In this document: piece by piece, positions 5,324 through 49,618 of the stretch | How positions within the stretch are numbered: position 1 is the first letter of the stretch | Layout: every line of letters starts with the position of its first letter | Assembly (NCBI GenBank): GCA_002784145.1 | Contig: PFKE01000065.1 | Coordinates: 2,935 to 66,934 of the forward strand | Reading direction: 5' to 3' | Length of the DNA stretch: 64,000 nucleotides | DNA from: Flavobacteriaceae bacterium CG_4_10_14_3_um_filter_33_47 | GTDB lineage: Bacteria; Bacteroidota; Bacteroidia; Flavobacteriales; Flavobacteriaceae | Translations under genes and position numbers: made by a program | The notes under the pieces: generated by a model | Databases searched by the model: none | Told to the model about the DNA's origin: nothing | Seen by the model: only the letters and a program-made list of their open reading frames with translations

Positions 5324-5373
5324 ACAGAAATTAAATAAAGGGTTAAAAATACTTTCATGGTTTATTAAATAAA

Positions 5374-5387
5374 ATGATATATATCAT
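5374..5387. promoter_or_regulatory. Fnr/Crp-type box upstream of ccoS-ccoNOQP
   Basis: Perfect palindrome ATGATATATATCAT; 22 nt from a minus-strand -7-like element TATTTTTA (5344-5351). Confidence 0.75.
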
Positions 5388-5391
5388 ATTT

Positions 5392-7767
5392 TTATTTCAA
5401 TTTTCTCGCAGCAAAATTGGTTGCTAATGTAGTAAATCCTACGACACTAATAGAGCTTAAAGGCATTAATATTGCTGCAAAAACAGGAGATAATTGGCCG
5501 GTTATTGCAAAATAAAGACCAATAATGTTGTATGTAAATGAGAGTAAAAAACTCCATTTAATAATTTTTATAGCTGTTTTAGAAATTTTTATATAATGGT
5601 AAAGTTGGTTAAATTTTGAGGCATCCAGAATGGCATCGCAAGCAGGCGAAAACACGTTGACATTTTCTGAAATGGCAATACCTACATTGCTTTGTGCCAG
5701 AGCGCCAGCATCGTTTAATCCATCACCTATCATTAATACATTAGCGCCTTCACTTTGATGGTATTTAATATATTCTAATTTGTCTTCCGGTTTTTGGTTG
5801 AATAACAATTTTGTTTTTGCTGGTAGTAATTTGGTTAAGTTTTCTTTTTCACCTGCATTATCTCCAGATAGAATTACTAAATCATAATGTTTTTTTAACT
5901 TATTAAAAAGCTGGGATAAGCCTTTTCTATAAGCATTATAAAAAGTAAATTTCCCTTTATATTTATTATTTGTACTGATATGAACAGCTGTATTTAAGGT
6001 AGTAGTATCCGTTGGAAAACCTACAAAAGGAGCTGAACCAATTTTTATTTGAGTTTCTTTATATTGGCCTTCAATACCTTCTCCCAAATATTCATTATAA
6101 GTGTCTAAAGAAACAATATCGTGTGTGTTTAAAAGATTGTATAACGCTCTACTTAAAGGATGATTTGAACCTCTTAAAGTACTTTTTAGAAGTGATTCTT
6201 CATGGAGTGAAAGTTCAGTGCCTTCATAGTTTATACTCATATTTTTGTTGGCAGTAATTGTGCCAGTTTTATCAAAAATAATGGTATCTATTTTAGATAG
6301 TTGCTCAATGACGCTGGCGTTTTTTAAGTAAAATTTTTTATTGCCCAAAATTCGTAAAATGTTTCCGAAAGTAAATGGGGCAGATAAGGCCAGAGCACAT
6401 GGGCAAGCAATAATTAATACGGCAGTAAAAACATTTAACGCTTTGCTAGAATCAACAAAAATCCAATAAGCAGAAGCCATAAAGGCTATAAGCAAAATAA
6501 TAAGCGTAAAGTATTTACTTATTTTATTTGTAATGGATTTATAAGCGTCTTCTTTATCTGTTTTAAAGACATCGTTGCTCCAAAGTTGGGTTAAATAGCT
6601 TTGCTCAACTGATTTTAAAACATCAACTTCAATACTTCCTTGTAATTGTTTTCCACCAGCAAAGAGTTTATCGCCAGAGTTTTTAGTAACCGTTTTAGAT
6701 TCTCCGGTTACAAAACTATAATCTATTCGGGCACTCCCTTTTATTAAAATACTGTCAACCGGAATTAATTCTTCGTTTCGTATTAATAATCGGTCTCCTT
6801 TTTCAATGTCATAAACTTGAATGGATTCTTCTTTTCCATCGGGTAAAATCTTGGTGATTCCAATAGGGAAATACGATTTGTAATCCCGTTCAAAAGATAA
6901 AAAGGAATAAGTTTTTTGTTGAAAAAATTTTCCGAGTAGCAAAAAGAAAATAAGACCTGTTAAACTATCGAAAAAACCAGCACCTACATCGTAAATAATT
7001 TCAAAAGTACTTCGTGAAAAAAGCACCAAAACACCAAGTGCTATGGGTACATCTATATTTAATATTTTGGATCTTAATCCTTTATATGCCGAAATAAAAT
7101 ATTCTTGTGCAGAGTAAAAAACTACAGGAACAGAATAAGAAAACATAAGCCACCTAAAGAGAGGTTTATATTGTTCTAACCAAAACTCATTGACTTCAAA
7201 ATATTCTGGAAATGATAAAAACATAACGTTTCCAAAAGCAAAACCTGCAAAACCTAGTTTATATATGATAGAACGGTCTATGGCTCTTTTAGAAGCACTG
7301 TAGTCGTCTAAACTTATAAAAGGCTCATAACCAATGCTGTTTAGTAAAACCACTAAATCTTTTAACGAGAGAATTTCAGAGTTAAAGGTTATTCTAACAT
7401 TCTTTTTTCCAAAGTTTACAATAGAAGAACTTACCGCAGCATGAATTTTATTTAAATTTTCTAAAACCCAAATGCACGAACTGCAATGGATGTGAGGAAT
7501 GTATAAAGTGATTATGTTTGTTTTTCCATCATTAAACTCCAACAATTTTTCAATAATTTTTTCATTCTCTAAAAAATTATATTTGCCTTCTATTTCCTTT
7601 GGAGTAGAACCTGGAGCTTGTTGTAAATCGTAATAACAGGTTAAATCATTTGCAGAAAAAATCTCGTAAACGGTCTTACAACCATTGCAACAAAATAATT
7701 TGTTATCAAAAATTATTTCAGAATCTTTGGTGTCTAATCCACAGTGGAAACATGTATGATGCTCCAT
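5392..7767 (-). CDS. ccoI: CcoI-type Cu-transporting P1B ATPase
   Basis: N-terminal CFHCG...CCNGC, HMA-like HCSSC, TM ACPC motif, DKTGT phosphorylation site, GDGLND; located in the cco cluster. Confidence 0.92.
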   Translation of the reverse strand: MEHHTCFHCGLDTKDSEIIFDNKLFCCNGCKTVYEIFSANDLTCYYDLQQAPGSTPKEIEGKYNFLENEKIIEKLLEFNDGKTNIITLYIPHIHCSSCIWVLENLNKIHAAVSSSIVNFGKKNVRITFNSEILSLKDLVVLLNSIGYEPFISLDDYSASKRAIDRSIIYKLGFAGFAFGNVMFLSFPEYFEVNEFWLEQYKPLFRWLMFSYSVPVVFYSAQEYFISAYKGLRSKILNIDVPIALGVLVLFSRSTFEIIYDVGAGFFDSLTGLIFFLLLGKFFQQKTYSFLSFERDYKSYFPIGITKILPDGKEESIQVYDIEKGDRLLIRNEELIPVDSILIKGSARIDYSFVTGESKTVTKNSGDKLFAGGKQLQGSIEVDVLKSVEQSYLTQLWSNDVFKTDKEDAYKSITNKISKYFTLIILLIAFMASAYWIFVDSSKALNVFTAVLIIACPCALALSAPFTFGNILRILGNKKFYLKNASVIEQLSKIDTIIFDKTGTITANKNMSINYEGTELSLHEESLLKSTLRGSNHPLSRALYNLLNTHDIVSLDTYNEYLGEGIEGQYKETQIKIGSAPFVGFPTDTTTLNTAVHISTNNKYKGKFTFYNAYRKGLSQLFNKLKKHYDLVILSGDNAGEKENLTKLLPAKTKLLFNQKPEDKLEYIKYHQSEGANVLMIGDGLNDAGALAQSNVGIAISENVNVFSPACDAILDASKFNQLYHYIKISKTAIKIIKWSFLLSFTYNIIGLYFAITGQLSPVFAAILMPLSSISVVGFTTLATNFAARKLK

Positions 7768-7825
7768 AAAGTTATTTGCTCATTTTATATACCTAACTGC
7801 AAAGATTTTAAATATACAAAAAATG

Positions 7826-7847
7826 AAATATGATATATGTCATATTT
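7826..7847. promoter_or_regulatory. Fnr/Crp-type box between divergent ccoI and fnr-like gene
   Basis: aaatATGATATATGTCATattt near-palindrome (core 7830-7843); 22 nt from minus-strand AATCTTTG (7800-7807). Confidence 0.75.
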
Positions 7848-7913
7848 TTAAAATATGATATTTGACAGCTTTTATGTAATTTTACATTTCTTTTAAATTT
7901 ACTAACAATTACT

Positions 7914-8591
7914 ATGGGTAGGTGTGAACAATGCATCATAAAAGAATTTAATTCACTTAAAACTTTAACCAATGATGAATTGGTTAGAATTTCTAATTGT
8001 AAGACCTCAAGGTTGGTAAAAAAGGGGGAAATGATTTTTGAAGAAGGTGATATGTTGAAGGGTATTTATTGTGTAAGAGAAGGTATTTGCAAGCTTACCA
8101 AGCTAAGTTCCAATGGTAAAGATCAAATTATAAAATTAGTTGTAAAAGGAGAGTTGTTAGGACAGCGTTCTTTAATAAGTGATGAATGTGTGAATTTGAG
8201 TGCAGTTGCATTAAATGATATGGAATTGTGTTTTATTCCCAAACACGAAATTCTTAACGATCTTCAAAAAAATACAAATTTCACGATTGATATATTGAAA
8301 GAAATGGCTCATGGTTTAAAAGAAGCCGATGATGTTATTGTAAATATGGCTCAAAAATCAGTGAGACAACGTTTAGCAGAAACCTTAATTTATATTAATG
8401 ACAATTTTGGAGCCAAATCAGATGGAACCTTAAGTGTTTTATTATCCAGAGAAGATTTTGCAAATATTATTGGTACGGCTACAGAATCAACCATTAGAGT
8501 ATTATCTCAATTTAAAAAAGAAGACCTTATCACCACCATAGGAAAACAAATTAAAATTATTGATATAGAAGGTTTAAAACGTGTTGAATAA
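7914..8591 (+). CDS. Crp/Fnr family transcriptional regulator with N-terminal Cys cluster
   Basis: N-terminal CEQC, cNMP-binding fold, HTH SREDFANIIGTATESTIR; divergent from the cco cluster. Confidence 0.92.
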   Translation: MGRCEQCIIKEFNSLKTLTNDELVRISNCKTSRLVKKGEMIFEEGDMLKGIYCVREGICKLTKLSSNGKDQIIKLVVKGELLGQRSLISDECVNLSAVALNDMELCFIPKHEILNDLQKNTNFTIDILKEMAHGLKEADDVIVNMAQKSVRQRLAETLIYINDNFGAKSDGTLSVLLSREDFANIIGTATESTIRVLSQFKKEDLITTIGKQIKIIDIEGLKRVE

Positions 8592-8680
8592 TTCATGATT
8601 CAATTTACTTTTCATGGTATAAGCAAATCTAATCACTCCTCATCAGTTTTTTGTTTAAAAAGTATTATTTTTATAGTGCT

Positions 8681-9811
8681 ATGACAAAAAATACATTTAG
8701 AAAAAAGGGCTTCGTTTTTAAACCTTATGAAGCACCATATCAATCACCCTTTGACAAACTCTTTGATATTTTTAAAGAATTAATTACACATACTTCGGGC
8801 GATTTTGATGAAGCTATAGATTGGTTAAAAGAATTAGACAAAGAATATAAATTAACCACTTCAGAGTACACCATAGGCGATTTTATTGAAGACCTAAAAA
8901 AGAAGGGCTACATACGTGAAGAGATCGATCCAGATGGAAATTCTGGTGGCATATCTATAACATCAAAAACAGAGCGAGCCATTAGGCAACAAGCCTTAGA
9001 TCAAATTTTTGGAAACATCAAACGCAGTGGCCAGGGAAATCATAAAAGTAAAAGCCCAGGAATTGGTGATGAGCATACTGGAGATTTTAGAGATTACCAA
9101 TTTGGTGATGCTTTAGATAAGGTGTCAATGACCGAAAGCCTAAAGAATGCTCAAATCAATCATGGAATAGGTAATTTCTCCATTTCAGAAGATGATTTAG
9201 TGGTTGAAGAAACGCTTCATAAATCACAAATGAGCACTGTTTTAATGATTGATATCAGCCATAGCATGATTCTTTATGGAGAAGACCGCATAACACCAGC
9301 AAAGAAAGTGGCTATGGCATTGGCAGAATTAATAACCACTCGCTATCCTAAAGATACCTTGGATATTTTAGTCTTTGGAAATGATGCATGGCAAATAGAA
9401 ATAAAAGACTTACCCTATTTAAAAGTTGGACCCTACCATACCAATACGGTTGATGGTTTGCAGTTGGCTATGGATTTACTCAGAAGAAAAAGAAATACTA
9501 ACAAACAAATCTTTATGATTACAGATGGAAAACCTAGTTGTTTGCGGTTGCCAGACGGGCAATACTACAAAAACAGTAATGGCTTAGACAGGCATATCGT
9601 CAATAAATGTTATGCCATGGCTCAACAAGCTAGGCGATTGCATATACCAATTACAACGTTTATGATTGCACAAGACCCATATTTAATGCAATTTGTTAGA
9701 GAGTTTACAGAGGCTAACCAAGGCAAAGCATTTTATACTGGTTTAAAAGGCTTAGGTGAAATGATTTTTGAAGATTATGAAACCAACCGGAAAAAAAGAA
9801 TTAAAGGATAA
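8681..9811 (+). CDS. von Willebrand factor A domain protein
   Basis: MIDAS-like DISHSM motif, T..NT, ITDG. ATG 8681 is preferred over the track start at 8651. Confidence 0.85.
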   Translation: MTKNTFRKKGFVFKPYEAPYQSPFDKLFDIFKELITHTSGDFDEAIDWLKELDKEYKLTTSEYTIGDFIEDLKKKGYIREEIDPDGNSGGISITSKTERAIRQQALDQIFGNIKRSGQGNHKSKSPGIGDEHTGDFRDYQFGDALDKVSMTESLKNAQINHGIGNFSISEDDLVVEETLHKSQMSTVLMIDISHSMILYGEDRITPAKKVAMALAELITTRYPKDTLDILVFGNDAWQIEIKDLPYLKVGPYHTNTVDGLQLAMDLLRRKRNTNKQIFMITDGKPSCLRLPDGQYYKNSNGLDRHIVNKCYAMAQQARRLHIPITTFMIAQDPYLMQFVREFTEANQGKAFYTGLKGLGEMIFEDYETNRKKRIKG

Positions 9812-9815
9812 TTAA

Positions 9816-9886
9816 TTAGCTGTTAGCTAAGTCTTTAGCATGAATATAATTCAGCTAAAAGCCAAAATCAAACAGCCAAAAGCTAT
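9816..9886. repeat. intergenic degenerate heptamer repeat element (GCYAAAA type), two inverted arms
   Basis: Left arm ttagctg-ttagcta-agtcttt-agc; right arm agctaaa-agccaaa-atcaaac-agccaaa-agctatg. Confidence 0.7.
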
Positions 9887-9889
9887 GAA

Positions 9890-11350
9890 ATGAAAAACAT
9901 AAAAACATTAGGGGATCTTAAAAAATCAGGTTATAAAAGTAAATCGATTAAAGATGAATTAAGAGATAATCTCATTCATAAAATAAAGAATAAAGAAACT
10001 ACTTTTCAAGGGGTTCATGGTTATGAAAATACGGTTATTCCAGAATTAGAGCGAGCTATTTTATCCCGTCATAACATCAATCTTCTAGGATTACGCGGAC
10101 AAGCAAAAACAAGATTGGCTCGTTTAATGGTGAATTTATTGGATGAATACATTCCCTTTGTTGAAGGTTCTGAAGTTAATGACGACCCATTTAAACCCAT
10201 TTCTCGATTTGCTATTGAACTCATTAAAGAAAAAGGGGACGTTACACCCATTGCTTGGTTGCATAGAAGTGAGCGTTTTGCAGAAAAATTAGCAACACCA
10301 GATGTAACCGTGGCAGATATTATTGGTGATGTGGATCCTATAAAAGCAGCCAATTTAAAACTGAGCTATGCTGATGATAGAGTGATTCATTATGGTATGA
10401 TTCCACGAGCCAATCGGTCCATTTTTGTAATTAACGAGTTGCCCGATTTACAAGCAAGAATTCAAGTGGCGTTGTTTAATATTTTACAGGAAGGCGATAT
10501 TCAAATACGAGGTTTTAAAGTAAGATTACCATTGGATATTCAGTTTTTATTTACCGCTAATCCTGAAGATTATACCAACAGAGGAAGTATTGTAACACCT
10601 TTAAAAGATAGAATTGGGTCGCAGATTTTAACACATTATCCAGTTGATATTGAAACGGCCAGATTGATTACAGAACAAGAGGCCAGAGTCGTAGAAAGTC
10701 AAAAAAACAGGGTTGCTGTCCCAGATTTGGCTAGAGATTTATTAGAACAAATTGTATTTGAAGCAAGAGAAAGTGAACTCATAGATGCCAAAAGTGGTGT
10801 CAGTGCCCGTTTAAGCATTACCGCTTTAGAAAACTTGTTAAGTACGGCAGAACGTAGAGCCTTAAAAGCTGGTGATGAAAAAACCATGATAAGATTGAGT
10901 GACTTTGTGGGTATTATTCCCTCTATTACAGGAAAAGTTGAACTTGTTTATGAAGGTGAACAAGAAGGCGCTGCTGTTGTTGCTTACAATTTGATTGGTG
11001 AAGCTGTAAAAAGTTTGTTTGAAGAATTTTTTCCTAAAATAGAAAAATTGAAAGCTCAAGCACAAGAATCTCCTTATGATGATGTTGTTTCATGGTTTTT
11101 CAATCAAAAAGAAGGTTTTGAATTATTGGATGATCTTAGAGATAAAGAATACAAAAGTTTGTTAGATGCCATTTCACCATTAGATGATTTATTAGGAAAA
11201 CACCAACCAAAATTAGCTAAAGAAGATTCTTATTTTGTTAAAGAATTTGTGCTTTGGGCTTTGGTTGAATTTAAACAATTAAGCAAATTTAGATTTACTG
11301 AAGGAACACAGTTTAAAGATCCTTATGGAAGTTTTATTAGTGGGATTTAA
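9890..11350 (+). CDS. AAA+ ATPase, Mg-chelatase/MoxR-like
   Basis: Walker A variant GLRGQAKT, Walker B FVINEL, FTANP, sensor LKDRIGSQ. Confidence 0.85.
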   Translation: MKNIKTLGDLKKSGYKSKSIKDELRDNLIHKIKNKETTFQGVHGYENTVIPELERAILSRHNINLLGLRGQAKTRLARLMVNLLDEYIPFVEGSEVNDDPFKPISRFAIELIKEKGDVTPIAWLHRSERFAEKLATPDVTVADIIGDVDPIKAANLKLSYADDRVIHYGMIPRANRSIFVINELPDLQARIQVALFNILQEGDIQIRGFKVRLPLDIQFLFTANPEDYTNRGSIVTPLKDRIGSQILTHYPVDIETARLITEQEARVVESQKNRVAVPDLARDLLEQIVFEARESELIDAKSGVSARLSITALENLLSTAERRALKAGDEKTMIRLSDFVGIIPSITGKVELVYEGEQEGAAVVAYNLIGEAVKSLFEEFFPKIEKLKAQAQESPYDDVVSWFFNQKEGFELLDDLRDKEYKSLLDAISPLDDLLGKHQPKLAKEDSYFVKEFVLWALVEFKQLSKFRFTEGTQFKDPYGSFISGI

Positions 11351-11929
11351 TTACCAATCCCCTCTGCTTTTAATATTTTTAGCGCATAATTGAATGATTT
11401 CGATTGTGCGTTTTTTTCTGGTGTCTTCTCGCTTTGCTTGGTTTAGCCAATATAAATAGCTTTTTCTGTAAGATGGCGCAAAGTTTTGATAGTTATTAAA
11501 AGCTATTGGGTTTTCATCAAATTCTTTCTGTAAATCTTCTGGAATATTTCCATTTTCAACATCATCCAATTCATTCCAACTTCCATTTAACTTGGCTATT
11601 TTAATTTTATTTAAACCGGCATCATGCATTAAACCCAAAGATAATAATTCTTCGATATATCTTTTATTTAAAGCACTCCAAACACTTTTATGATTTCGCG
11701 GTGTAAAATATTGTCTGCGTTTTCCATTACCCAAACTTTTTACGGTTGAATCAATCCAGCCATAACACAAAGCCACTTTTACAGCTTCTTCCCATCGCAT
11801 GCTGTCGTTTTCATGGGCCACCTTATAAAAAATTAAATACACTCCTTTTATGGAATCATGGTGATTATGTAACCAGTTTCTCCATGCTTTATCTGTTTTA
11901 AAATATAGTTCAGGAGTTTCTTCAGGCAT
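11351..11929 (-). CDS. YdeI/OmpD-associated family protein
   Basis: EEAVKVALCYGWIDS, FTPR..KSVWSALNK, and a C-terminal SYRKSYLYWLNQAKR..TR domain. Confidence 0.85.
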   Translation of the reverse strand: MPEETPELYFKTDKAWRNWLHNHHDSIKGVYLIFYKVAHENDSMRWEEAVKVALCYGWIDSTVKSLGNGKRRQYFTPRNHKSVWSALNKRYIEELLSLGLMHDAGLNKIKIAKLNGSWNELDDVENGNIPEDLQKEFDENPIAFNNYQNFAPSYRKSYLYWLNQAKREDTRKKRTIEIIQLCAKNIKSRGDW

Positions 11930-13576: not shown

Positions 13577-13578
13577 AA

Positions 13579-14913: not shown

Positions 14914-14938
14914 TGATTTTTTTTCTAAAATAATAAAA

Positions 14939-14971
14939 AAAAGTGTTCTAAATTTAATTTGGAACACTTTT
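14939..14971 (-). terminator. intrinsic terminator of the beta-oxidation operon
   Basis: aaaagtgttctaaatt-t-aatttggaacactttt stem with flanking A/T tracts, just past the acyl-CoA dehydrogenase stop. Confidence 0.75.
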
Positions 14972-14994
14972 AAAGTTGAATTAGGTACTATATT

Positions 14995-16803: not shown

Positions 16804-16820
16804 GTTATAGTAATAGTTTT

Positions 16821-22999: not shown

Positions 23000-23013
23000 A
23001 TGATTTATGTCAT
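23000..23013. promoter_or_regulatory. Fnr/Crp-type box upstream of ppdK
   Basis: ATGATTTATGTCAT, 22 nt upstream of a perfect TAATTTTG (23036-23043). Confidence 0.75.
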
Positions 23014-23079
23014 TGAATACGTTTTTTATAGTATATAATTTTGTCTCTATTAATTTAAAAAAAGTAAAAATATAATCAT

Positions 23080-25809
23080 ATGGAAATTTTAGAATCGGTA
23101 AAAACCAGAGTCTATAAATTCGGAAATAAAACAGCCGATGGAAATAGCAAAATGAAAAACCTTTTAGGTGGTAAAGGAGCAAATTTAGCAGAAATGAGTT
23201 TAATTGGAATACCAGTTCCTCCTGGTTTTACCATTACTACAGAAGTTTGTACAGAGTACAATCTTTTAGGTCAAGATGCGGTTGTAAAAATGATTTTACC
23301 AGAAGTAGAAGAATCTATTGCAAATGTAGAAACTATTATGAACGCCAAATTTGGCGATTCTGAAAATCCATTGTTGGTATCTGTTCGTTCAGGAGCAAGA
23401 GTTTCAATGCCTGGAATGATGGATACCGTTCTTAATTTAGGTTTAAATGATGAAGTTGTTGTTGGTTTGGCAAAAAAAACCAATAACGAACGTTTTGCAT
23501 GGGATTCTTACAGACGTTTCATTCAAATGTATGGTGATGTTGTTTTAGGGATGAAACCAGAGTCAAAAGAAGATATCGATCCTTTCGAGGAAATCATGGA
23601 AGCTCTTAAATATAAAAGAAACATCCAGTTAGATACAGAGTTTACTATTCAAGATTTAAAAGATCTTGTTTATGATTTTAAAGAAGCCGTTAAAAAACGT
23701 ACAGGGCATGATTTTCCAAAAAATCCTTGGGATCAACTTTGGGGAGCAGTTGTTGCAGTATTTAACAGTTGGAACGGTGATAGAGCAGTTTACTATAGAA
23801 ACATGAACGGTTATCCATCAGATTGGGGAACGGCTGTTAACGTACAAGCCATGGTATATGGAAACATGGGAGATAATTCTGGAACAGGTGTTTGCTTTAC
23901 AAGAGATGCAGGAACAGGAGAAAACGTGTTTAATGGTGAATATTTAATCAATGCACAAGGTGAAGATGTGGTTGCTGGAACAAGAACACCACAACAAATC
24001 ACAAAATTAGGATCTTTACGTTGGGCAGAATTAGCTAAAGTAGAGGAAGAAGAAAGAACAAAAAATTATCCTTCTCTTGAAGAGTTAATGCCAAATATTT
24101 TTAAAGAATTAAACGAATATCAAAACAAGCTAGAAAACCATTACAGAGACATGCAAGATATGGAGTTTACTATGCAAGATGGTAAACTTTGGATTTTACA
24201 AACCAGAAATGGTAAACGTACTGGTGCAGCCATGGTTAAAATAGCTATGGATATGCTTAAAGAAGGCTTGATTGATGAAAAAGAAGCTTTATTGAGAATT
24301 GAACCTAACAAATTAGATGAATTATTACACCCTGTTTTTGATACAAAAGCATTGAAACGCGCTCATGTAATTGCTCAAGGTTTACCAGCATCTCCAGGCG
24401 CAGCAACAGGTCAAATAGTATTCTTTGCAGATGAAGCCAATAAATATAAATACACCATTTTAACCCGAATTGAAACGTCTCCAGAAGATTTAGAAGGCAT
24501 GAATATTGCTCGCGGTATTTTAACAGCTCGTGGTGGTATGACGTCCCATGCAGCAGTTGTTGCCAGAGGTATGGGTAAATGTTGTATATCTGGTGCAGGG
24601 GCATTAAAAATTAATTATAAAACAAGAACTCTAATAGTTGATGGTAAAGAATATCATGAAGGTGATTGGATTTCTTTAAACGGTTCTACGGGTAATATTA
24701 TTGAAGGCAAAGTAGCCACAAGAGAGCCTGAATTAAGTGGTGAATTTGGTGATTTAATGACCTTGTCAGACAAATATGCAACCATGCAAGTTAGAACCAA
24801 TGCAGATACACCAAAAGATGCAAGAGTTGCTCGTTCATTCGGAGCTCAAGGGATAGGATTGACAAGAACAGAGCATATGTTTTTTGAAGTTGACCGTATA
24901 AAAGCTATGAGAGAAATGATTTTAGCAGATACGGTTAAAGGTAGAAAACACGCTTTAGAGCAATTGTTACCTATGCAACGCGAAGATTTTGAAGGTATTT
25001 TTGAAGCCATGCAAGGTTTACCTGTAACAGTGAGATTGTTAGATCCACCTTTGCATGAATTTGTGCCTCACCAATTAATTCAACAAAAAGAGTTGGCTGA
25101 AGAGATGCATATTTCATTGGAAGCTGTGAAAAGTAAAATTTCAGAATTGGAAGAATTCAACCCCATGCTTGGTCATAGAGGTTGCAGATTAGGAAACACC
25201 TATCCTGAAATTACTGAGATGCAAGCCAGAGCTATCATTGAAGCTGCCTTAAATCTAAAAGCAAAAGGTATTGTTGCCAAACCAGAAATTATGGTTCCCT
25301 TGATAGGAACGGTTGCAGAATTTGAAATGCAAGAAGAAATTATCAGAAGAACGGCTCAAAAAGTATTTGAAGAATATAATGATACGATTGAATTTTTAGT
25401 TGGTACTATGATTGAAATTCCAAGAGCAGCATTAACGGCAGATTTAATTGCTAAAAAAGCTGAATTCTTCTCTTTTGGCACGAATGATTTAACCCAAATG
25501 ACTTTTGGTTATTCAAGAGACGATGCCGGTAAATTTTTACCGATCTATATAGAAAAAGGCATTTTAAAAGTAGATCCATTTGAAGTACTTGATCAAGAAG
25601 GCGTTGGTCAATTAGTAAAAATGGGTACAGAAAAAGGTAGAAGTACAAAACCTAATTTAAAAGTTGGTATTTGTGGCGAACATGGTGGTGAACCAAGTTC
25701 TGTTGAATTCTGCTATAATTCTGGAATGAACTATGTAAGTTGTTCACCTTTTAGAGTTCCTATTGCTCGACTTGCCTCTGCGCAAGCGGCCATTAAAAAG
25801 TCCATGTAA
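23080..25809 (+). CDS. ppdK: pyruvate, phosphate dikinase
   Basis: GGKGANLAEM, LVSVRSGA, phospho-His motif GGMTSHAAVVAR, GTNDLTQ, GICGEHGG. Confidence 0.97.
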   Translation: MEILESVKTRVYKFGNKTADGNSKMKNLLGGKGANLAEMSLIGIPVPPGFTITTEVCTEYNLLGQDAVVKMILPEVEESIANVETIMNAKFGDSENPLLVSVRSGARVSMPGMMDTVLNLGLNDEVVVGLAKKTNNERFAWDSYRRFIQMYGDVVLGMKPESKEDIDPFEEIMEALKYKRNIQLDTEFTIQDLKDLVYDFKEAVKKRTGHDFPKNPWDQLWGAVVAVFNSWNGDRAVYYRNMNGYPSDWGTAVNVQAMVYGNMGDNSGTGVCFTRDAGTGENVFNGEYLINAQGEDVVAGTRTPQQITKLGSLRWAELAKVEEEERTKNYPSLEELMPNIFKELNEYQNKLENHYRDMQDMEFTMQDGKLWILQTRNGKRTGAAMVKIAMDMLKEGLIDEKEALLRIEPNKLDELLHPVFDTKALKRAHVIAQGLPASPGAATGQIVFFADEANKYKYTILTRIETSPEDLEGMNIARGILTARGGMTSHAAVVARGMGKCCISGAGALKINYKTRTLIVDGKEYHEGDWISLNGSTGNIIEGKVATREPELSGEFGDLMTLSDKYATMQVRTNADTPKDARVARSFGAQGIGLTRTEHMFFEVDRIKAMREMILADTVKGRKHALEQLLPMQREDFEGIFEAMQGLPVTVRLLDPPLHEFVPHQLIQQKELAEEMHISLEAVKSKISELEEFNPMLGHRGCRLGNTYPEITEMQARAIIEAALNLKAKGIVAKPEIMVPLIGTVAEFEMQEEIIRRTAQKVFEEYNDTIEFLVGTMIEIPRAALTADLIAKKAEFFSFGTNDLTQMTFGYSRDDAGKFLPIYIEKGILKVDPFEVLDQEGVGQLVKMGTEKGRSTKPNLKVGICGEHGGEPSSVEFCYNSGMNYVSCSPFRVPIARLASAQAAIKKSM

Positions 25810-37341: not shown

Positions 37342-37367
37342 ATTAAATGATTTAATTCAAAGAATAG

Positions 37368-37375: not shown

Positions 37376-37431
37376 TAAACAAAAATAAGGGAATCACTCA
37401 ATTAATAAAAATTTAGAGCGTTTAAGTTTAA

Positions 37432-38729: not shown

Positions 38730-38730
38730 A

Positions 38731-39375: not shown

Positions 39376-39391
39376 AGTTATAACATTAAGG

Positions 39392-42594: not shown

Positions 42595-43097
42595 TTAGTT
42601 TTTCTACTAAATATAATGGTTATTAATATGCACAGGATGATAGTGAATATACTTGAGAATAACGTTTTTTGAAGTGTTAAAATTATTTTTGAAATGTTAA
42701 AGATTTCTAGTGAAAAAAGTATAAGATGATGAATGACCGTTAAAATTGTGATGTAGAGCAGTTTTGAGCCAAACTCAACCGTATCAAATTTTATGGTTTG
42801 ATATTCGTAGATGGTTCCAAAGCAAAATTTTAGAATAAGTGGTCTTGCATAGGCAATACTCACGCAAGATGCGGCATGAATACCGCCAGAATCAGAAAAT
42901 AAATCAATGGTTAATCCCATTAAAAAACTTAGAAAAACAAATAATGTTCTACTATTTTTTATGGGAAATAATATAACAAATAAAATATAAGTGTAAGGAT
43001 TGATGTATCCAAGAAAATTAATATGGTTTAAAACCACGACTTGTAAACCTACAAGTAAAATGAAGCGAACCATGTTGGCATATGTTACACTATTCAT
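42591..43097 (-). CDS. mreD: rod shape-determining protein MreD
   Basis: Hydrophobic, GLTIDLFSDSGGIHA; lies between mreC and mrdA. Confidence 0.9.
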   Translation of the reverse strand: MNSVTYANMVRFILLVGLQVVVLNHINFLGYINPYTYILFVILFPIKNSRTLFVFLSFLMGLTIDLFSDSGGIHAASCVSIAYARPLILKFCFGTIYEYQTIKFDTVEFGSKLLYITILTVIHHLILFSLEIFNISKIILTLQKTLFSSIFTIILCILITIIFSRKTK

Positions 43098-43914
43098 TTT
43101 GACTAGTATTTAGCAGATTGGTTATTTCTTGAATATCGGTATTTTCAATAACATAAACATGTTCTAAATTGGTCATGTCATTAAAAAGCTTGATGTTTAT
43201 TTCGTAATAATTTTCTGCAGCATCTAGTTTGAAATCATGTATAATTCCAATAGAAATACCTTTTGGGAATATGGATGAACGTCCAGAAGTTACAATGGTA
43301 TCACCCACGTTTACCGGAGCTATTTTTGGAATATCAATTAATTGGGTAAAATAAGGAGACTGCCCATTCCATGTTAAGGTTCCAAAATGATTTGTTTTTT
43401 TAAGCTGAGCACTTATTTTGCTAGAAGTATTTAATATAGAAAGTACTGTGGCATATTTTTTACTTGTATGGTCTATAATGCCCACAATACCTTTTGATGA
43501 AATAACACCAAAGTCTTGTTGAATACTATCTGAAAATCCTTTGTTTAGTAACAAGACATTTTTGGATGAGGCAAAACTATTTTTTAAAATATTTGCAGGT
43601 GTAAATCTATAATTTTTATTAAAGGTTGTGCGATCTGTAAAACTAGAATCGTTAACACTTTTAGAATTGTGTAAAATAGCATTTAATCTGCTGTTTTCTT
43701 CCAGTAAAATCTCGTTCTGGGTTTTAAGACCAAAATAGTTGTTAATATTACTTAAAGAGTTATAAACGCCACCCGTTAAAAAATTGGCAGAATTAATAAA
43801 CTTACTTTTGTGATAAGAATGTGTTTGGATGGTAAAAGTTAGCGATAAGGTAAACAGCAACAAGAACAACAAAAACGTTTTGTTTCTTATTATAAAATTT
43901 ATAATTTGTTGCAT
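43090..43914 (-). CDS. mreC: rod shape-determining protein MreC
   Basis: N-terminal TM and coiled coil, GDTIVTSG.SSIFPKGI. Confidence 0.93.
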   Translation of the reverse strand: MQQIINFIIRNKTFLLFLLLFTLSLTFTIQTHSYHKSKFINSANFLTGGVYNSLSNINNYFGLKTQNEILLEENSRLNAILHNSKSVNDSSFTDRTTFNKNYRFTPANILKNSFASSKNVLLLNKGFSDSIQQDFGVISSKGIVGIIDHTSKKYATVLSILNTSSKISAQLKKTNHFGTLTWNGQSPYFTQLIDIPKIAPVNVGDTIVTSGRSSIFPKGISIGIIHDFKLDAAENYYEINIKLFNDMTNLEHVYVIENTDIQEITNLLNTSQNE

Positions 43915-43929
43915 GTTAAATTAATAGAG

Positions 43930-44958
43930 CTATTTAATCAATACACTTTTGTATTTTATTAAATTTTTAAGGGTTATGCCCGTGCCTCTTACTACGGCAC
44001 GTAAAGGATCTTCAGCTATGTAAACTGGCAAATCTGTTTTTTGAGATAAACGTTTATCTAAGCCACGTAACATAGAGCCGCCACCAGCTAAATAAATACC
44101 TGTATTATAAATATCGGCAGCTAGTTCTGGAGGTGTTTGAGATAAGGTTTCCATCACAGCATCTTCAATACGTAAAATGGATTTATCTAGAGCTTTAGCT
44201 ATTTCTCTGTATGAGATTTGAACTTGTTTTGGTTTACCTGTTAGTAAATCACGACCTTGAACACTCATATCGTCTGGAGGAAGTTCCAAATCTTCGGTAG
44301 CTGCACCAATCTGAATTTTTATTTTTTCAGCAGTACGTTCACCTACATATAAATTGTGCTGCGTTCTCATGTAATAAACAATATCATTGGTGAAAACATC
44401 ACCTGCAATCTTTACAGATTTATCGCAAACAATACCACCCAAAGCAATCACCGCAATTTCTGTAGTACCGCCACCTATATCAACAATCATATTACCTTTA
44501 GGTTGCATGATATCTATTCCAATTCCAATGGCAGCAGCCATGGGTTCATGAATTAAATAAACTTCTTTACCATTTACACGTTCTGCACTTTCTTTAACAG
44601 CACGCATTTCAACTTCTGTAATTCCTGAAGGGATACAAATAACCATTCTTAAAGCAGGTGTAAAAAATCTCTTTTTTAGTGCAGGTATGTTTTTAATAAA
44701 CATACTAATCATTTGTTCAGAAGCATCAAAATCTGCAATAACACCATCTTTTAAAGGTCTTATGGTTTTGATGTTTTCATGAGTTTTTCCTTGCATTAAA
44801 CTAGCTTCTTGACCAACATGCGTTATTTTACCGGTTATTCTGTCTCGCGCTACAATGGAAGGCGCATCAACCACTACTTTGTCATTATGTATAATAAGGG
44901 TATTTGCAGTACCTAAATCTATTGCAATTTCTTCAGTTAGGAAGTCAAAAAAGCCCAT
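43930..44958 (-). CDS. mreB: actin-like MreB
   Basis: DLGTANT, PLKDGVIADF, DIGGGTTE, GGGSML. Confidence 0.97.
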   Translation of the reverse strand: MGFFDFLTEEIAIDLGTANTLIIHNDKVVVDAPSIVARDRITGKITHVGQEASLMQGKTHENIKTIRPLKDGVIADFDASEQMISMFIKNIPALKKRFFTPALRMVICIPSGITEVEMRAVKESAERVNGKEVYLIHEPMAAAIGIGIDIMQPKGNMIVDIGGGTTEIAVIALGGIVCDKSVKIAGDVFTNDIVYYMRTQHNLYVGERTAEKIKIQIGAATEDLELPPDDMSVQGRDLLTGKPKQVQISYREIAKALDKSILRIEDAVMETLSQTPPELAADIYNTGIYLAGGGSMLRGLDKRLSQKTDLPVYIAEDPLRAVVRGTGITLKNLIKYKSVLIK

Positions 44959-45046
44959 GTGCTGTATGTGTTGTTAAAGGTTTGTAAACTTATCTTGTAA
45001 ATGTAATAAAAGTTAAGGTAAATAAAATAATTAGATATTTATTTAA

Positions 45047-46579
45047 TTAATGTTTGAAATGTCTTGTTCCTGTTAATACCATAGAAACATTGTTTTCATT
45101 GCAAAAATCAATACTCAATTGGTCTTTAATGGATCCTCCTGGTTGAATTACGCTGGAAATACCAGCATTTTTAGCAATTTCCACACAATCTGGAAAAGGA
45201 AAAAAGGCATCACTTGCCATAACAGAACCTTTTAAATCAAAATGAAAACTTTGTGCTTTATGAATGGCTTGGTTTAAGGCGTCAACCCGACTTGTCTGAC
45301 CTGTTCCGCTTGCTAATAGTTGTTTGTTTTTTGCTAATACGATGGTGTTAGATTTGGTGTGCTTACAAATTTTTGAAGCAAAGATTAAATCTTCTAACTC
45401 GTTTTTGTTTGGTTTATTGTTAGTTGCATAGGTTAAATGTTCAATGGCATCGGTTATGTTATCCCGGCCTTGAACCAATACACCATTTAAACAACTTCTT
45501 ACGCTTGTTTTTGGCATGTCAATATCGTGAATAACTAAAATAATTCTGTTTTTTTTGCCTTGTAAAATAGTTAAGGCGTCTGCGGAATAAGAAGGAGCAA
45601 TAATGACTTCGCAAAATAAATTGTGTATGTCTTCGGCTGAAGTTTTATCTATTTCTGTATTGCTAATTAAAACACCACCAAAAGCAGAAACTGGATCACC
45701 TGCTAAGGCATCTAAATACGCTTGTTTTATACTGGCTCTTTGTGCTAAACCGCAGGCGTTGTTGTGTTTTAAAATAGCAAAGGTAGGTGCATCATTTTTA
45801 AACTCATTCATTAAGTTTACGGCAGAGTCTACATCTAGTAAATTATTATAGCTAAGTTCTTTACCATGAAGTTTTGTAAAAAGCGCATCAAAATTACCAA
45901 AGAAAAACCCTTTTTGATGTGGGTTTTCACCATATCGTAAAACCTGACCATTGGTTTCGCTAATTTTTAATACGGCTTCTTCATGATTTTTGTTGAAATA
46001 ATTAAAAATGGCCGAATCATAATGCGACGAAACATTAAAGGCTTTGGTAGCAAAACGTTTTCTATCACTTTCTGAAAGGTTCCCGTTTTTCTCTGTAATT
46101 AAATCAAGAAATTCAGCATAGTCATCTACCGAAGCAACACAAACCACATCCGCATAATTTTTTGCGGCTGCCCGAATTAACGAAATACCTCCAATATCAA
46201 TTTTCTCAATAATATCTTGTTCACTGGCTCCCGAAGCGACCGTTTTTTCAAACGGGTATAAATCAACAATAACCACATCTATTTGAGGGATATCAAATTC
46301 AGCTAATTCAGCAATGTCACTCATATTATTTTGACGGTTTAAAATACCACCAAACACTTTTGGATGTAATGTTTTAACACGTCCGCCAAGAATAGAAGGG
46401 TATGAGGTTATTTCTTCAACAGGAATTACATGAATGCCTAAGTTGTTAATAAATTGTTGTGTACCACCGGTTGAATAAATGGTTACTCCTTGCTCGTTTA
46501 ATTTCTTTACAATGGGTTCTAATCCATCCTTACTAAAGACTGATATTAATGCGGACTTAATTGTTTTTTGGTTACTCAT
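45047..46579 (-). CDS. purH: bifunctional AICAR transformylase / IMP cyclohydrolase
   Basis: GGRVKTLHP, IDIGG, LRYGENPHQ, SDAFFPF, IQPGGS, RHFKH. Confidence 0.97.
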   Translation of the reverse strand: MSNQKTIKSALISVFSKDGLEPIVKKLNEQGVTIYSTGGTQQFINNLGIHVIPVEEITSYPSILGGRVKTLHPKVFGGILNRQNNMSDIAELAEFDIPQIDVVIVDLYPFEKTVASGASEQDIIEKIDIGGISLIRAAAKNYADVVCVASVDDYAEFLDLITEKNGNLSESDRKRFATKAFNVSSHYDSAIFNYFNKNHEEAVLKISETNGQVLRYGENPHQKGFFFGNFDALFTKLHGKELSYNNLLDVDSAVNLMNEFKNDAPTFAILKHNNACGLAQRASIKQAYLDALAGDPVSAFGGVLISNTEIDKTSAEDIHNLFCEVIIAPSYSADALTILQGKKNRIILVIHDIDMPKTSVRSCLNGVLVQGRDNITDAIEHLTYATNNKPNKNELEDLIFASKICKHTKSNTIVLAKNKQLLASGTGQTSRVDALNQAIHKAQSFHFDLKGSVMASDAFFPFPDCVEIAKNAGISSVIQPGGSIKDQLSIDFCNENNVSMVLTGTRHFKH

Positions 46580-46667
46580 TTTGTTGGTTTGTTTCTTTTT
46601 TTATAATTGAAAAGCAATTTTTAGATGAATTTTTTCTTAAATCTTGTTATGTAGCATCTTAAAAGTG

Positions 46668-46675
46668 CAAAAGTA
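46668..46675 (-). promoter_or_regulatory. -7 promoter element of purH
   Basis: TACTTTTG(CA) on the minus strand. Confidence 0.65.
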
Positions 46676-46791
46676 ATTATTTCAAGTAAAATTACAGACT
46701 AGAAAAGGGTTTAGTTTTTATTTTTTGTAACGAATATTTTAATTAAACGTCATATCTTTATCTCTTAATGATCATTTAGAATTTTAAGCGT

Positions 46792-48042
46792 ATGATGCTT
46801 TATTTACGTCTTTTTAAAGAAAGTTTTTTCTTTGCAATTAATGCCTTGAGAAACAACAAACTGCGTACGTTTTTATCATTAATAGGAGTTACAGTTGGTA
46901 TTTTTTCAATCATTGCAGTATTAGCGGCCGTAGATTCTTTAGATCAAAGTATTAAAAGTCAACTTTCTGGTATCGACAAAAACACCATGTATGTTACTCG
47001 TTTTTCCTTTGGTCCCACAGAGATTCCCCGATGGCAACGCGAGAATTTCCCACAAACAGGCTACGATGATTTTGAATTTATAAAACGAAATGTTTCAGGA
47101 GTAGAAGCCTGTGCTTTTGCGCTTTTTGGAAGTGCCCAAAGTATTCGATATCAGGATAGAACGCTTGAAAACATCAATACCACACCTGTTTCAAACGAAA
47201 TTTATGAAATAGATAATTTAAAACTTTTTAAAGGCCGATTTTATAACGAAACCGAATCAAATATTGGTGCTTCTGTGATTGTTTTAGGATATAATTTGGC
47301 TGAAAATCTTTTTGAAAATGAAGAACCAATTGGAAAAATAGTTCGAGTTTATGGGAGAAAATTAACCGTTATTGGTGTGCTTGGTAAATATGGTGGTCTT
47401 AATATGGATTCTCCTGATGATAAAGCTTTTGTACCGGCCAATTTTGTTCGTCAGTTTATGAATACTGGAAATAATGGAATTATGACCATGATTATTATTA
47501 AACCTGAAAAAGGCATTGATATCGGCGCTTTTGAAGAAGTTTTAAGACAAAAATATAGAAGGTACAGAGGCTTAAAACCTGATGAAATCGATAATTTTTT
47601 TATCAATAAACTCTCCGGATTTACAGATTTAATAGACGGTATTATTTCAACTATGAATATGATTGGTTGGGTTATTAGTGGATTTTCTTTATTGGTTGGT
47701 GGTTTTGGAGTTGCCAATATTATGTTTGTGAGTGTAAAAGAACGAACCAATTTAATTGGAATTCAAAAAGCTATGGGAGCCAAGAATCGCTTTATATTAT
47801 TTCAGTTTTTATTTGAAGCTGTTATTTTAGCCGTTATTGGTGGGCTTATTGGGTTGTTTTTGGTATGGATTGGCACCTTAATAGGGTCTTCATTAGCTGG
47901 AGATTTTGAGTTTGTACTGTCATTTAAAAATATGGTACTAGGCTTTACAGTATCAAGCATTATAGGGTTAATAGCGGGTATTTTACCTGCGAATTCTGCG
48001 GCAAAGTTAGACCCTGTTGAGGCCATCAGAACCGGTATGTAG
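46792..48042 (+). CDS. MacB/FtsX-family ABC transporter permease
   Basis: N-terminal TM, periplasmic domain, GVANIMFVSVKERT..IGI.KAMGA, LDPVEAIR. Confidence 0.92.
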   Translation: MMLYLRLFKESFFFAINALRNNKLRTFLSLIGVTVGIFSIIAVLAAVDSLDQSIKSQLSGIDKNTMYVTRFSFGPTEIPRWQRENFPQTGYDDFEFIKRNVSGVEACAFALFGSAQSIRYQDRTLENINTTPVSNEIYEIDNLKLFKGRFYNETESNIGASVIVLGYNLAENLFENEEPIGKIVRVYGRKLTVIGVLGKYGGLNMDSPDDKAFVPANFVRQFMNTGNNGIMTMIIIKPEKGIDIGAFEEVLRQKYRRYRGLKPDEIDNFFINKLSGFTDLIDGIISTMNMIGWVISGFSLLVGGFGVANIMFVSVKERTNLIGIQKAMGAKNRFILFQFLFEAVILAVIGGLIGLFLVWIGTLIGSSLAGDFEFVLSFKNMVLGFTVSSIIGLIAGILPANSAAKLDPVEAIRTGM

Positions 48043-48043
48043 G

Positions 48044-48499
48044 TTAAAGAATCGTTGCTACCTTTGCACAAACAAACTCTAAAAAACGTTCATCAGCTTC
48101 CGTAAAAGGGTCTGGTGTATTTGAATCTATATCTATCTGCCCTATATTCTTACCATTTACAAAAATGGGTATCACAATTTCAGCTTTCACAGTTATGCTG
48201 CAAGCTATGTAATTGTCTTGTGCTGCAACATCAGGAACCACAAAGTTTTTATTGCTTACAGCTACTTGTCCACAAATACCTTTTCCAAATGGAATAACGG
48301 TATGATTTGTTGGAGCACCAACATATGGTCCTAAAATTAATTCTTCTTTAAGGCCATTTCTAAAATAAAAACCAACCCAATTATAGTACGATATGTTTTT
48401 TTCAAGCACTTCACAGATGTTTAACAATCGTTGCTCTATAGGTTTTTCTTGTTTAGAAACAATCGCTTCTATTTGTGGTTTTAAAGTTTCAAAAATCAT
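48044..48499 (-). CDS. GAF domain protein, free Met-R-sulfoxide reductase (MsrC/YebR)-like
   Basis: YNWVGFY, GICGQ, NYIACS, EIVIP, DIDS. Confidence 0.85.
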   Translation of the reverse strand: MIFETLKPQIEAIVSKQEKPIEQRLLNICEVLEKNISYYNWVGFYFRNGLKEELILGPYVGAPTNHTVIPFGKGICGQVAVSNKNFVVPDVAAQDNYIACSITVKAEIVIPIFVNGKNIGQIDIDSNTPDPFTEADERFLEFVCAKVATIL

Positions 48500-48584
48500 C
48501 TATTAAAAGTTTTGGTAAAAGTATTTAAAAAGACGTAACTTCGATATTCAAATTTATTTAAATTTAAAATCGTTTTAGGTTTTT

Positions 48585-49136
48585 TTGAAGGCACTCGTTA
48601 TTAAATACAAATCGGTTATCAAATTTATATTAACATTTATGGTGGTATATATGTTAATGTCTTTATGCTATAAATGGTATTTAGATATTTCAAAAAATGG
48701 CGATTATTTTCCTGATTATATTACCAATTTAGTAGCTAGACAAAGCAAAGATTTAATTGATGTTACCGGCTATAATGCTCAAGTTTTACCGCATTCAGAA
48801 GAACCTTCCATGAAATTAATTATAAATGATAAATACTTGGCCAGAGTGATTGAAGGTTGCAATTCTGTAAGTGTTATTATTTTATTTGTTTCGTTTATTG
48901 TGGCTTTTTCTGGTAGTTTAAAAACAACGTTGATGTATATACTCTCTGGAAGCGTTTTAATTTATACGGTTAATTTATTACGAATCGTTATTTTATCTAT
49001 TGGCTTGTATCATTATCCTTGGCGAAGAGATATATTACATACGGTGATTTTTCCAGGAATTATTTATGGAATGGTCTTTTTATTATGGATTTTTTGGGTA
49101 AACAGATTTTCTAACATGATAAAAAAAAATGAATAA
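48585..49136 (+). CDS. xrtF: exosortase family protein XrtF
   Basis: IIEGCNSVS catalytic Cys, NLLRI Arg, conserved His; followed by its partner gene. TTG start. Confidence 0.88.
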   Translation: MKALVIKYKSVIKFILTFMVVYMLMSLCYKWYLDISKNGDYFPDYITNLVARQSKDLIDVTGYNAQVLPHSEEPSMKLIINDKYLARVIEGCNSVSVIILFVSFIVAFSGSLKTTLMYILSGSVLIYTVNLLRIVILSIGLYHYPWRRDILHTVIFPGIIYGMVFLLWIFWVNRFSNMIKKNE

Positions 49137-49557
49137 TAGTCTTAAATATACCTTATTAATACTGTTGTTTGGAATGTTAGTGTTAATCCGTGTTTTTGAG
49201 AACCAACTATTTTACGACCCATATTTATTGTTTTTTCAAAATGACTATCTATATATTGACAATCCCAGGCGAGAAGTTTTTAAATTAATGACCTTTACAA
49301 GTTTAAGATATGGGTTAAATGCCATCATCTCATTAGCCATCTTGTATGTGGTTTTTAAAGATGTAAGTATGATTAAGTTTTCAACACTTATATACCTGTT
49401 TTCATTTATATTGCTTAGTTTAATGTATCTATATTTTGTTGTAAACCCTAAGCAAGAGCAGTATTATTTGTTTTTTAACATCAGACGGTTTTTAATTCAA
49501 CCCATCCTTTTATTAGTCTTGTTACCAGCTTTTTATTATTACAAACTGAAGCATTAA
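49129..49557 (+). CDS. exosortase F system-associated membrane protein
   Basis: IRVFENQLFYDP and RRFLIQP motifs; overlaps xrtF. Confidence 0.85.
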   Translation: MNNSLKYTLLILLFGMLVLIRVFENQLFYDPYLLFFQNDYLYIDNPRREVFKLMTFTSLRYGLNAIISLAILYVVFKDVSMIKFSTLIYLFSFILLSLMYLYFVVNPKQEQYYLFFNIRRFLIQPILLLVLLPAFYYYKLKH

Positions 49558-49568
49558 ATGTTAAGGTC

Positions 49569-49582
49569 ATGATAAACATCAG
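49569..49582. promoter_or_regulatory. Fnr/Crp-type box upstream of the metal efflux cluster
   Basis: ATGATAAACATCAG, 22 nt upstream of a perfect TATTTTTG (49605-49612). Confidence 0.65.
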
Positions 49583-49618
49583 CTTGTATTGGTTATATTT
49601 TTCGTATTTTTGGTTTCT

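Follow-up and report, generated by a model that had tools for sequence, protein, structure and literature searches.

A conserved ATGAY-N4-RTCAT operator marks a probable family-wide low-oxygen regulon of Flavobacteriaceae with two candidate regulators

The stretch of DNA considered here, called the window and 64,000 nucleotides (nt) long, spans C159:2935-66934 (contig PFKE01000065.1) of the genome assembly GCA_002784145.1 of Flavobacteriaceae bacterium CG_4_10_14_3_um_filter_33_47; coordinates without a contig prefix are window positions. It carries four transcription units whose promoters share a box of the type recognised by Crp/Fnr proteins. On the minus strand near its left end lies a cbb3 oxidase operon (293-5323; Pfam FixS, COX1+FixO, FixQ, FixP_N and FixG_C) composed of ccoS (5138-5323), ccoNO (2943-5126), ccoQ (2727-2921), ccoP (1792-2730) and ccoG (293-1717). 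Beside it, on the same strand, ccoI (5392-7767; Pfam E1-E2_ATPase, Hydrolase and ATPase-cat_bd) encodes the P-type ATPase for maturation of the cbb3 oxidase and is divergent from the gene of an Fnr-like Crp/Fnr-family regulator of 225 amino acids (7914-8591, plus strand; Pfam cNMP_binding and HTH_Crp_2). Farther along the plus strand are ppdK, encoding pyruvate phosphate dikinase (23080-25809; Pfam PPDK_N, PEP-utilizers and PEP-utilizers_C), and a copper/silver efflux cluster (49619-59878), which according to NCBIfam encodes, in this order, HYC_CC_PP, a CusA/CzcA RND pump, a TolC-like protein, a CusB-like adaptor, a CopZ-like protein and a CopA-type ATPase.

Box 1, ATGATATATATCAT (5374-5387, minus strand), heads the ccoS-ccoNO-ccoQ-ccoP-ccoG operon and is paired with the -7 element TATTTTTA (5344-5351, minus strand), from which a ccoS start site near 5339 is predicted on that strand by the promoter spacing known from F. 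psychrophilum (below). Box 2, ATGATATATGTCAT (7830-7843, minus strand), occupies the spacer between ccoI and the fnr-like gene; read for ccoI it is ATGACATATATCAT, and its partner is the ccoI -7 element AATCTTTG (7800-7807, minus strand), which has the form nAnnTTTG. Box 3, ATGATTTATGTCAT (23000-23013, plus strand), is followed by the ppdK -7 element TAATTTTG (23036-23043, plus strand). Box 4, ATGATAAACATCAG (49569-49582, plus strand), deviates at its outermost base and stands before the HYC_CC_PP gene and the efflux cluster; its -7 element, TATTTTTG (49605-49612, plus strand), lies 6 nt before the ATG at 49619. The distance between box and -7 element is 22 nt in all four pairs, and positions and sequences, checked directly in the window, are exactly those of the original prediction. 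A relaxed scan of the window passed these four sites only. Outside the window, 2.3 kb beyond its left end (C159:589-632), the gene of the oxygen-independent coproporphyrinogen oxidase, hemN, has a perfect box, ATGACCATTATCAT, paired over 22 nt with TAATTTTG; this gene belongs with the cco cluster.

How special is this arrangement in the genome as a whole? The assembly comprises 2.94 Mb in 164 contigs at 33% G+C, and a simple longest-open-reading-frame routine called 2740 genes and left 9.1% (264 kb) as intergenic DNA, of which 100 dinucleotide-preserving shuffles served as the control. The strict box ATGAYNNNNRTCAT occurs 58 times in the genome, and 33 of these occurrences are intergenic, whereas the shuffles average 1.0 and never exceed 4. 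The combination of box, N22 and TAnnTTTG, for which the original prediction had proposed just such a comparison, was found 11 times, against 0.00 in 100 shuffles. Chance is excluded as a genome-wide explanation by these frequencies. The classical FNR box TTGAY-N4-RTCAA is not enriched in the intergenic DNA (3 occurrences versus 1.8 in the shuffles). When one outer base is relaxed, the number of intergenic boxes rises to 52, and a -7-like word stands at exactly 22 nt from 39 of them if up to one mismatch is allowed (13 are exact); the histogram of spacings has a single spike at 22 nt and between 0 and 4 cases, with a background level of about 1-2, at each other spacing from 5 to 44. Instead of the four units proposed originally, the regulon comprises about 40-50 promoters in this genome.

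From these sites 37 units of box, -7 element and gene were extracted, and their products were named by NCBIfam and Pfam. They include genes for respiration and haem (hemN, hemA, the cbb3 operon, ccoI and a monohaem cytochrome c), for central carbon metabolism (ppdK, pckA, citrate synthase, pntA and methylmalonyl-CoA epimerase), for ferredoxin-linked functions (an OorD-like ferredoxin, IOR-alpha, a 2-oxoacid:acceptor oxidoreductase alpha subunit and a YfhL ferredoxin) and for hydrogen and sulfur metabolism (a NiFe hydrogenase small subunit, HypA, a NuoE/F-like protein, a PhsA-like molybdoenzyme and a rhodanese); the remaining units encode ApbC, two tandem Usp proteins, a thioredoxin-like protein, EF-G2, an Rrf2 regulator and an ArsR regulator. 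As a whole, the set is typical of a low-oxygen and anaerobic-metabolism regulon, and with boxes before ccoS-NO-Q-P-G, ccoI and hemN it contains the core targets of FNR/FixK-type regulators. The aligned promoters have no conserved -33 TTTG, and about half of their -7 elements end in A rather than G; at ccoI, a first base other than T is conserved in the -7 element, for example as AACCTTTG in 26 loci. Such weak -7 and -33 core elements fit activator-dependent promoters, which usually have them.

The boxes are conserved well beyond this genome. In a survey of the family with one genome per genus, the strict pair was present in 69 of 80 Flavobacteriaceae genera, with 373 occurrences as compared to 5 for a reversed-pattern control; among 160 further genomes of the phylum, all ten that belong to the same family have pairs, which are rare elsewhere. 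The box in the ccoI/fnr spacer is found in 29 of 29 orthologous fnr loci, and nAnnTTTG lies exactly 22 nt from it on the ccoI side in 27 of them. Among 69 full-length loci of named species, 57 have the ccoI-side box and 54 the ccoS box with a -7 element at 22 nt, synteny being rearranged in most of the remaining loci. The closest named relatives, judged by identity of the regulator, are Gaetbulibacter sp. M235 (92%) and Yeosuana aromativorans (89%). The ppdK gene is present in 17 of 79 other genomes, and 16 of the 17 orthologues have a box, mostly 58-74 nt before the ATG, together with a -7 element at 22 nt.

The position of the box relative to the start of transcription can be read from data on a relative. 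Sequencing of RNA 5' ends in F. psychrophilum located the sigma-A element TAnnTTTG at -12 to -5 (PMC9723704), and a gap of 22 nt therefore puts the box at -48 to -35, with its centre at -41.5. Precisely this arrangement is visible at a mapped start site: in the accessible part of Table S2 of that paper, the -50 to +10 sequence of THC0290_T_0050 is TGAtgatatttatcatttttttaAGTCATAACATAGCCTACTTTTGAAgtaac, with ATGATATTTATCAT at -48 to -35 and TACTTTTG at -12 to -5. The corresponding gene, THC0290_0041, encodes a cytochrome c551/c552-family protein and is a member of expression cluster C52 (PMC9723704), which comprises the cbb3 oxidase, hemN and a monohaem cytochrome c and is induced by oxygen limitation (Guerin et al. 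2021, PMC9723704). Cluster C52 thus resembles the regulon described here in family, in gene content and in the position of the box. At a second start site in the same part of the table, T_0388 of a PAS-domain gene, ATGATAATTATCAT stands at -46 to -33. The start site T_0050 lends experimental support to our model, in a relative of the same family and not in this organism. Two parts of the original prediction are borne out in this way: sites of the TGA-N6-TCA type precede low-oxygen genes in the fixed geometry of class II promoters, and the position near -41.5 expected of an activator is the one seen directly at T_0050. The mapped hemA promoter of F. psychrophilum has no box, although hemA is a predicted target in the present genome, and membership of hemA is therefore not family-wide. 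The main text of PMC9723704 contains none of the terms Fnr, Crp and palindrom-, and its accessible supplements contain neither Fnr nor Crp; no regulator or operator is therefore tied to C52 there.

Which protein might read the boxes? The regulator encoded at 7914-8591 belongs to the Crp/Fnr family (PF00027 at 4e-20, PF13545 at 4e-16); its relatives in the PDB include FNR, CRP, NtcA, DNR and FixK2, and it aligns over its full length with Aliivibrio FNR (E 8e-22). In this alignment C4, C7 and C106 match FNR C20, C23 and C122. C4, C7, C53 and C106 are invariant in 29 orthologues, C4, C7 and C106 also in a second set of 13, and C29 and C59 are present in 26 of the 29. The original description of a Cys-bearing regulator is accordingly right about the family and the conserved cysteines; of the four cluster cysteines of FNR the protein keeps three at homologous positions. 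With respect to its site and its recognition helix it is not an FNR in the strict sense: the boxes read ATGAY-N4-RTCAT and not TTGAT-N4-ATCAA, and the helix is T-E-S-T-I-R (E-S-A-I-R in most relatives) as compared to E-T-I-S-R in FNR, and so not of the form E-x-x-S-R. In FNR it is Ser212 that reads the outer T of TTGAT, and the exchange of Ser for Ile in the helix and of T for A in the box looks like a case of co-variation.

The regulator gene may itself be under control of the spacer box. Read towards fnr, this box is ATGATATTTGTCAT in most genera. Its distance from the fnr ATG is 31-43 nt there, and a conserved TAnnTTTA, the predicted fnr -7 element, follows it after 8 nt; such a gap would put the centre of the box near -27.5 of the fnr promoter. 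In most genera, a single spacer site would then serve as activator of ccoI and probably as repressor of fnr. A duplication of about 25 bp is common to the present genome, Gaetbulibacter sp. M235 and Yeosuana aromativorans. The intact box at 7830-7843 has kept its 22-nt relation to the ccoI -7 element after the duplication, and a decayed second copy, ATGATATTTGACAG (7855-7868, plus strand), follows 11 nt after it, with the predicted fnr -7 element TAATTTTA (7877-7884, plus strand) another 8 nt downstream. Because it is the fnr-proximal copy that has decayed, autorepression of fnr may be relaxed here.

A second candidate lies elsewhere in the genome, which holds seven Crp-family proteins, only two of them with an E-x-x-I-R helix. 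Besides the Fnr-like protein this is a fusion of a receiver domain with a Crp body (REC-Crp; C145:1062-2117, minus strand; 351 amino acids; Response_reg, cNMP_binding and HTH_Crp_2) with the helix T-E-T-L-I-R, which is kept at its 351-residue length in 41 of the 80 genera. Directly upstream, a FixL-like haem-PAS histidine kinase of 413 amino acids is encoded (C145:2121-3362, minus strand). Residues 11-130 of the kinase, its PAS domain, best match RmFixL (1d06, 1.2e-14), DosP and BjFixL, and H64 aligns with the proximal His of the FixL and DosP haem domains; by these marks the domain is a predicted haem-binding sensor. In this minus-strand operon region (C145:135-3362), a box at 1026 follows the REC-Crp gene and stands before a tandem Usp gene; two further boxes, at C145:3861 and 4572, stand before a pyridoxamine-oxidase-like gene and a porin. 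About a dozen genera have, in addition, a third group of Crp/Fnr paralogues of about 250-260 amino acids with 32-36% identity to the Fnr-like protein, and the protein at C48:4416-5126 (helix P-E-S-L-G-R) may be the counterpart of this group in the present genome.

The distribution of the two proteins among the 80 genera, sorted by presence of an Fnr-like orthologue, of REC-Crp and of CcoNO, follows that of the boxes. Genomes with neither regulator (n=8) have a mean of 0.25 strict pairs and no cbb3 oxidase (0/8); the mean is 3.6 in those with only the Fnr-like protein (n=31, cbb3 in 28) and likewise 3.6 in those with only REC-Crp (n=17, cbb3 in 16), and it rises to 8.3 where both are present (n=24, cbb3 in all 24). 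Of 15 REC-only genomes inspected upstream of ccoNO, 14 have a -7 element at exactly 22 nt from a box with no more than one mismatch, and the ppdK box is kept in one of the two REC-only genomes that have ppdK as well as in three Fnr-only genomes. Since REC-only genomes keep the ccoS and ppdK boxes, the box is not a private operator of the Cys-bearing regulator; either regulator suffices to maintain it. The four promoters in the window are thus most likely read by both proteins, to judge from these sequence comparisons. By eye, no rule that would separate the sites of the two regulators was found in the half-site (ATGAT versus ATGAC), the outer base or the central tetranucleotide: the promoter-distal outer base of the ccoS box is often C or T in REC-only genomes, but also in three Fnr-containing ones.

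Taken together, it is highly probable that the four boxes are activator sites of a low-oxygen regulon that extends through the Flavobacteriaceae and is read by two regulators. From the existence, geometry, conservation and gene content of the boxes and from their phyletic link to both proteins, we infer binding, activation, the oxygen signal and a division of labour between the two. We envision a scenario whereby a dimeric protein of the Crp/Fnr type binds ATGAY-N4-RTCAT such that 22 nt separate the end of the box from the sigma-A -7 element TAnnTTTG downstream; the box would then occupy -48 to -35, including the place where a -33 element would be, and the bound protein would recruit RNA polymerase as at class II FNR and CRP promoters. 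The Fnr-like protein probably senses oxygen through an Fe-S cluster ligated by N-terminal cysteines, and the receiver-Crp fusion on C145 probably receives its phosphate from the FixL-like haem-PAS kinase encoded next to it. Falling oxygen would switch on the ccoS operon, ccoI and ppdK, with both regulators most likely acting on the same boxes, and the copper-efflux promoter would have been recruited recently and in a lineage-specific manner. A more specific version of this model, in our view an even call, is that one hypoxia operator serves two independent sensors: an FNR-like protein with a ligand set unlike that of any characterised FNR (C4, C7 and C106, with C53 or C29 standing in for FNR C29), and a one-step phosphorelay from FixL to the receiver-Crp fusion, both activating from -41.5 at Bacteroidota sigma-A promoters that have a -7 TAnnTTTG and no -33 element.

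Several observations weigh against this model. The position of FNR C29 is occupied by Asn13, with no Cys there, and a 4Fe-4S cluster is therefore no more than a putative oxygen sensor in the Fnr-like protein; possible candidates for a substitute fourth ligand are the invariant C53 or the mostly conserved C29 (also C59). The presence or absence of either regulator in a genome rests on E-value cut-offs, and the gene calls behind the genome-wide scan come from a crude open-reading-frame caller. Metatranscriptomes from aquifers yield few contigs of low depth over ccoNO and ccoS, in which 5' ends are not callable; they indicate that ccoNO is transcribed in situ, and one contig reaches 5361, upstream of the predicted ccoS start, which may reflect read-through from ccoI or DNA. 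Finally, the expectation that the boxes are conserved in relatives, which holds in dozens of genera for ccoS, ccoI and ppdK, fails at the copper-efflux promoter, where box 4 is conserved in only 2 of the 30 closest HYC_CC_PP orthologues. The other orthologues share a different upstream element, TAAACTTCTGTTAAA. Conceivably, box 4 is a chance match outside the regulon, in keeping with its absence from 28 of the 30 closest orthologous clusters, which carry the other element, and with the departure of its outermost base from the consensus. We consider this doubtful, given that its strict pattern (13 specified positions, 22 nt and an exact TAnnTTTG) did not occur once in 100 shuffles, that a rough estimate predicts about 0.04 such matches per genome even if limited to real promoters, and that paralogous HYC_CC_PP genes do have boxes in several other genera (for example in genomes G043, G041, G070, G016 and G054). 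We therefore read box 4 as a recent, lineage-specific recruit to the regulon.

Could a single regulator account for the boxes? The original prediction had assigned all four units to the Cys-bearing Fnr-like protein, and REC-Crp would in that case have a separate regulon or motif. The Fnr-like protein remains a candidate: in every locus inspected its gene is the neighbour of ccoI and a box separates the two, and Fnr-only genomes have both the ccoS and the ppdK box. It is, however, not a unique one, because genomes that lack it keep the ccoS box at the same 22-nt spacing (14/15) and the ppdK box (1/2), because the helix TETLIR of REC-Crp is nearly identical to TESTIR, and because boxes cluster round the REC-Crp operon itself (C145:1026, 3861 and 4572); sole action of the Fnr-like protein is thus unlikely. 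The converse, in which REC-Crp and its FixL-like kinase are the only activator and the Fnr-like protein merely regulates itself or ccoI from the shared spacer, could draw on the retention of the regulon core in REC-Crp-only genomes and on the lack of one canonical cluster ligand in the Fnr-like protein. It would leave without explanation the 31 genera that have the Fnr-like protein and no REC-Crp, with their mean of 3.6 strict pairs including ccoS and ppdK boxes, and the near absence of pairs from genomes with neither regulator, and we regard it as very improbable. Least probable of all is a reading in which the boxes are not class II activator sites but repressor operators, or belong to an unrelated factor or sigma element. 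The fnr spacer box, only 8 nt before the predicted fnr -7 element in most genera, would indeed repress fnr. Against this reading, the box takes the -33 place at promoters that show no conserved -33 TTTG, many -7 elements fall short of the optimum (with a final A or a first base other than T), as expected for activator dependence, box-bearing genes of F. psychrophilum are induced and not repressed under oxygen limitation, and the palindromic TGA-N6-TCA core is the signature of Crp/Fnr proteins.

The proposed activation of one operator by two regulators has parallels in well-studied systems. The Fnr-like protein shares with E. coli and Aliivibrio FNR the Crp/Fnr fold, an N-terminal C-x2-C and a central Cys, which match C20, C23 and C122 in position; its promoters share with the class II promoters of FNR (TTGAT-N4-ATCAA) the TGA-N6-TCA core centred at -41.5, and the targets, including hemN, likewise belong to low-oxygen respiration and fermentation. 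Unlike in FNR, the outer base of the box is A (ATGAY) and not T, in line with the lack of enrichment of TTGAY-N4-RTCAA here, the helix E-S-T-I-R has Ile for the Ser of E-T-I-S-R, a Cys at the C29 position is missing, with C53 or C29 of the Fnr-like protein as candidate fourth ligands, and the partner of the box is the Bacteroidota -7 element TAnnTTTG instead of a -10 hexamer. With the rhizobial FixL-FixJ-FixK cascade the present system has in common a haem-PAS kinase resembling FixL and DosP, a final effector of the Crp/Fnr type and, as the core target, the cbb3 oxidase (fixNOQP/fixGHIS). In Rhizobium leguminosarum, according to the accessible part of the source, FnrN and FixK act on the same anaeroboxes (PMC7888657); to that extent, an Fe-S-type and a kinase-driven regulator converge on one type of box there as well. 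Contrary to the rhizobial case, in which FixJ and FixK are separate proteins, the receiver is here fused to a cNMP-binding and HTH_Crp body, the box has another sequence, and the system, a prediction from sequence, belongs to another phylum. A Crp/Fnr homologue of Flavobacteriales has been classed as MalR-like (PMC8510549), and neither a flavobacterial Fnr box nor a receiver-Crp fusion is described in the literature covered by a full-text search (including PMC8510549, PMC3590769 and PMC9723704). What differs from known systems is thus the box, the E-x-x-I-R helix, the ligand set and the receiver-Crp fusion, whereas the theme is that of class II activation by FNR and FixK.

Flavobacteriaceae play a major part in the breakdown of organic matter, be it in oceans, soils, aquifers or fish hosts, and their response to falling oxygen has so far been without a description at the level of regulator and operator. 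Our analysis provides an operator, ATGAY-N4-RTCAT at 22 nt before the -7 element, some 40-50 promoters, two candidate regulators and a fitting start site, and the regulon is therefore directly testable in tractable relatives. The model would also account for the hypoxia-induced cluster of the fish pathogen F. psychrophilum and would represent a natural case of two types of sensor converging on one DNA site. If the two-sensor version is true, the geometry of class II activation has survived in a phylum whose promoters are built differently; the system offers a test of whether activation from -41.5 holds for the unusual sigma-A promoter of Bacteroidota.

Some further features of the window deserve mention. 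In the relaxed scan, the palindrome ATAATCAGCATTAT at 62290-62303 was noted for -7-like TAnnTTTG words 22 nt off on both sides; the lack of a TGA/TCA core and a position between the ends of two convergent genes led to its rejection, and a link with the regulon is improbable. At the HYC_CC_PP and copper-efflux promoters of other genera, a proximal element, GTTAAAATTT, is also present just before the -7 element, and box 4 stands in the place of the distal element TAAACTTCTGTTAAA in this genome (49530-49620); together, TAAACTTCTGTTAAA and GTTAAAATTT could be the site of a metal-responsive regulator. The sequence of the window was detected at 98-100% of sampled words in many aquifer and groundwater metagenome runs from 2017, and the genome was therefore probably assembled from an aquifer metagenome. 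Many genera keep the words ATGAAAGTA (5352-5360) in the interval from the ccoS box to the -7 element, as ...TATGAAAGTACTTTTG; in this genome, ATGAAAGTA could also open a 12-codon upstream open reading frame whose TGA overlaps the ccoS ATG.

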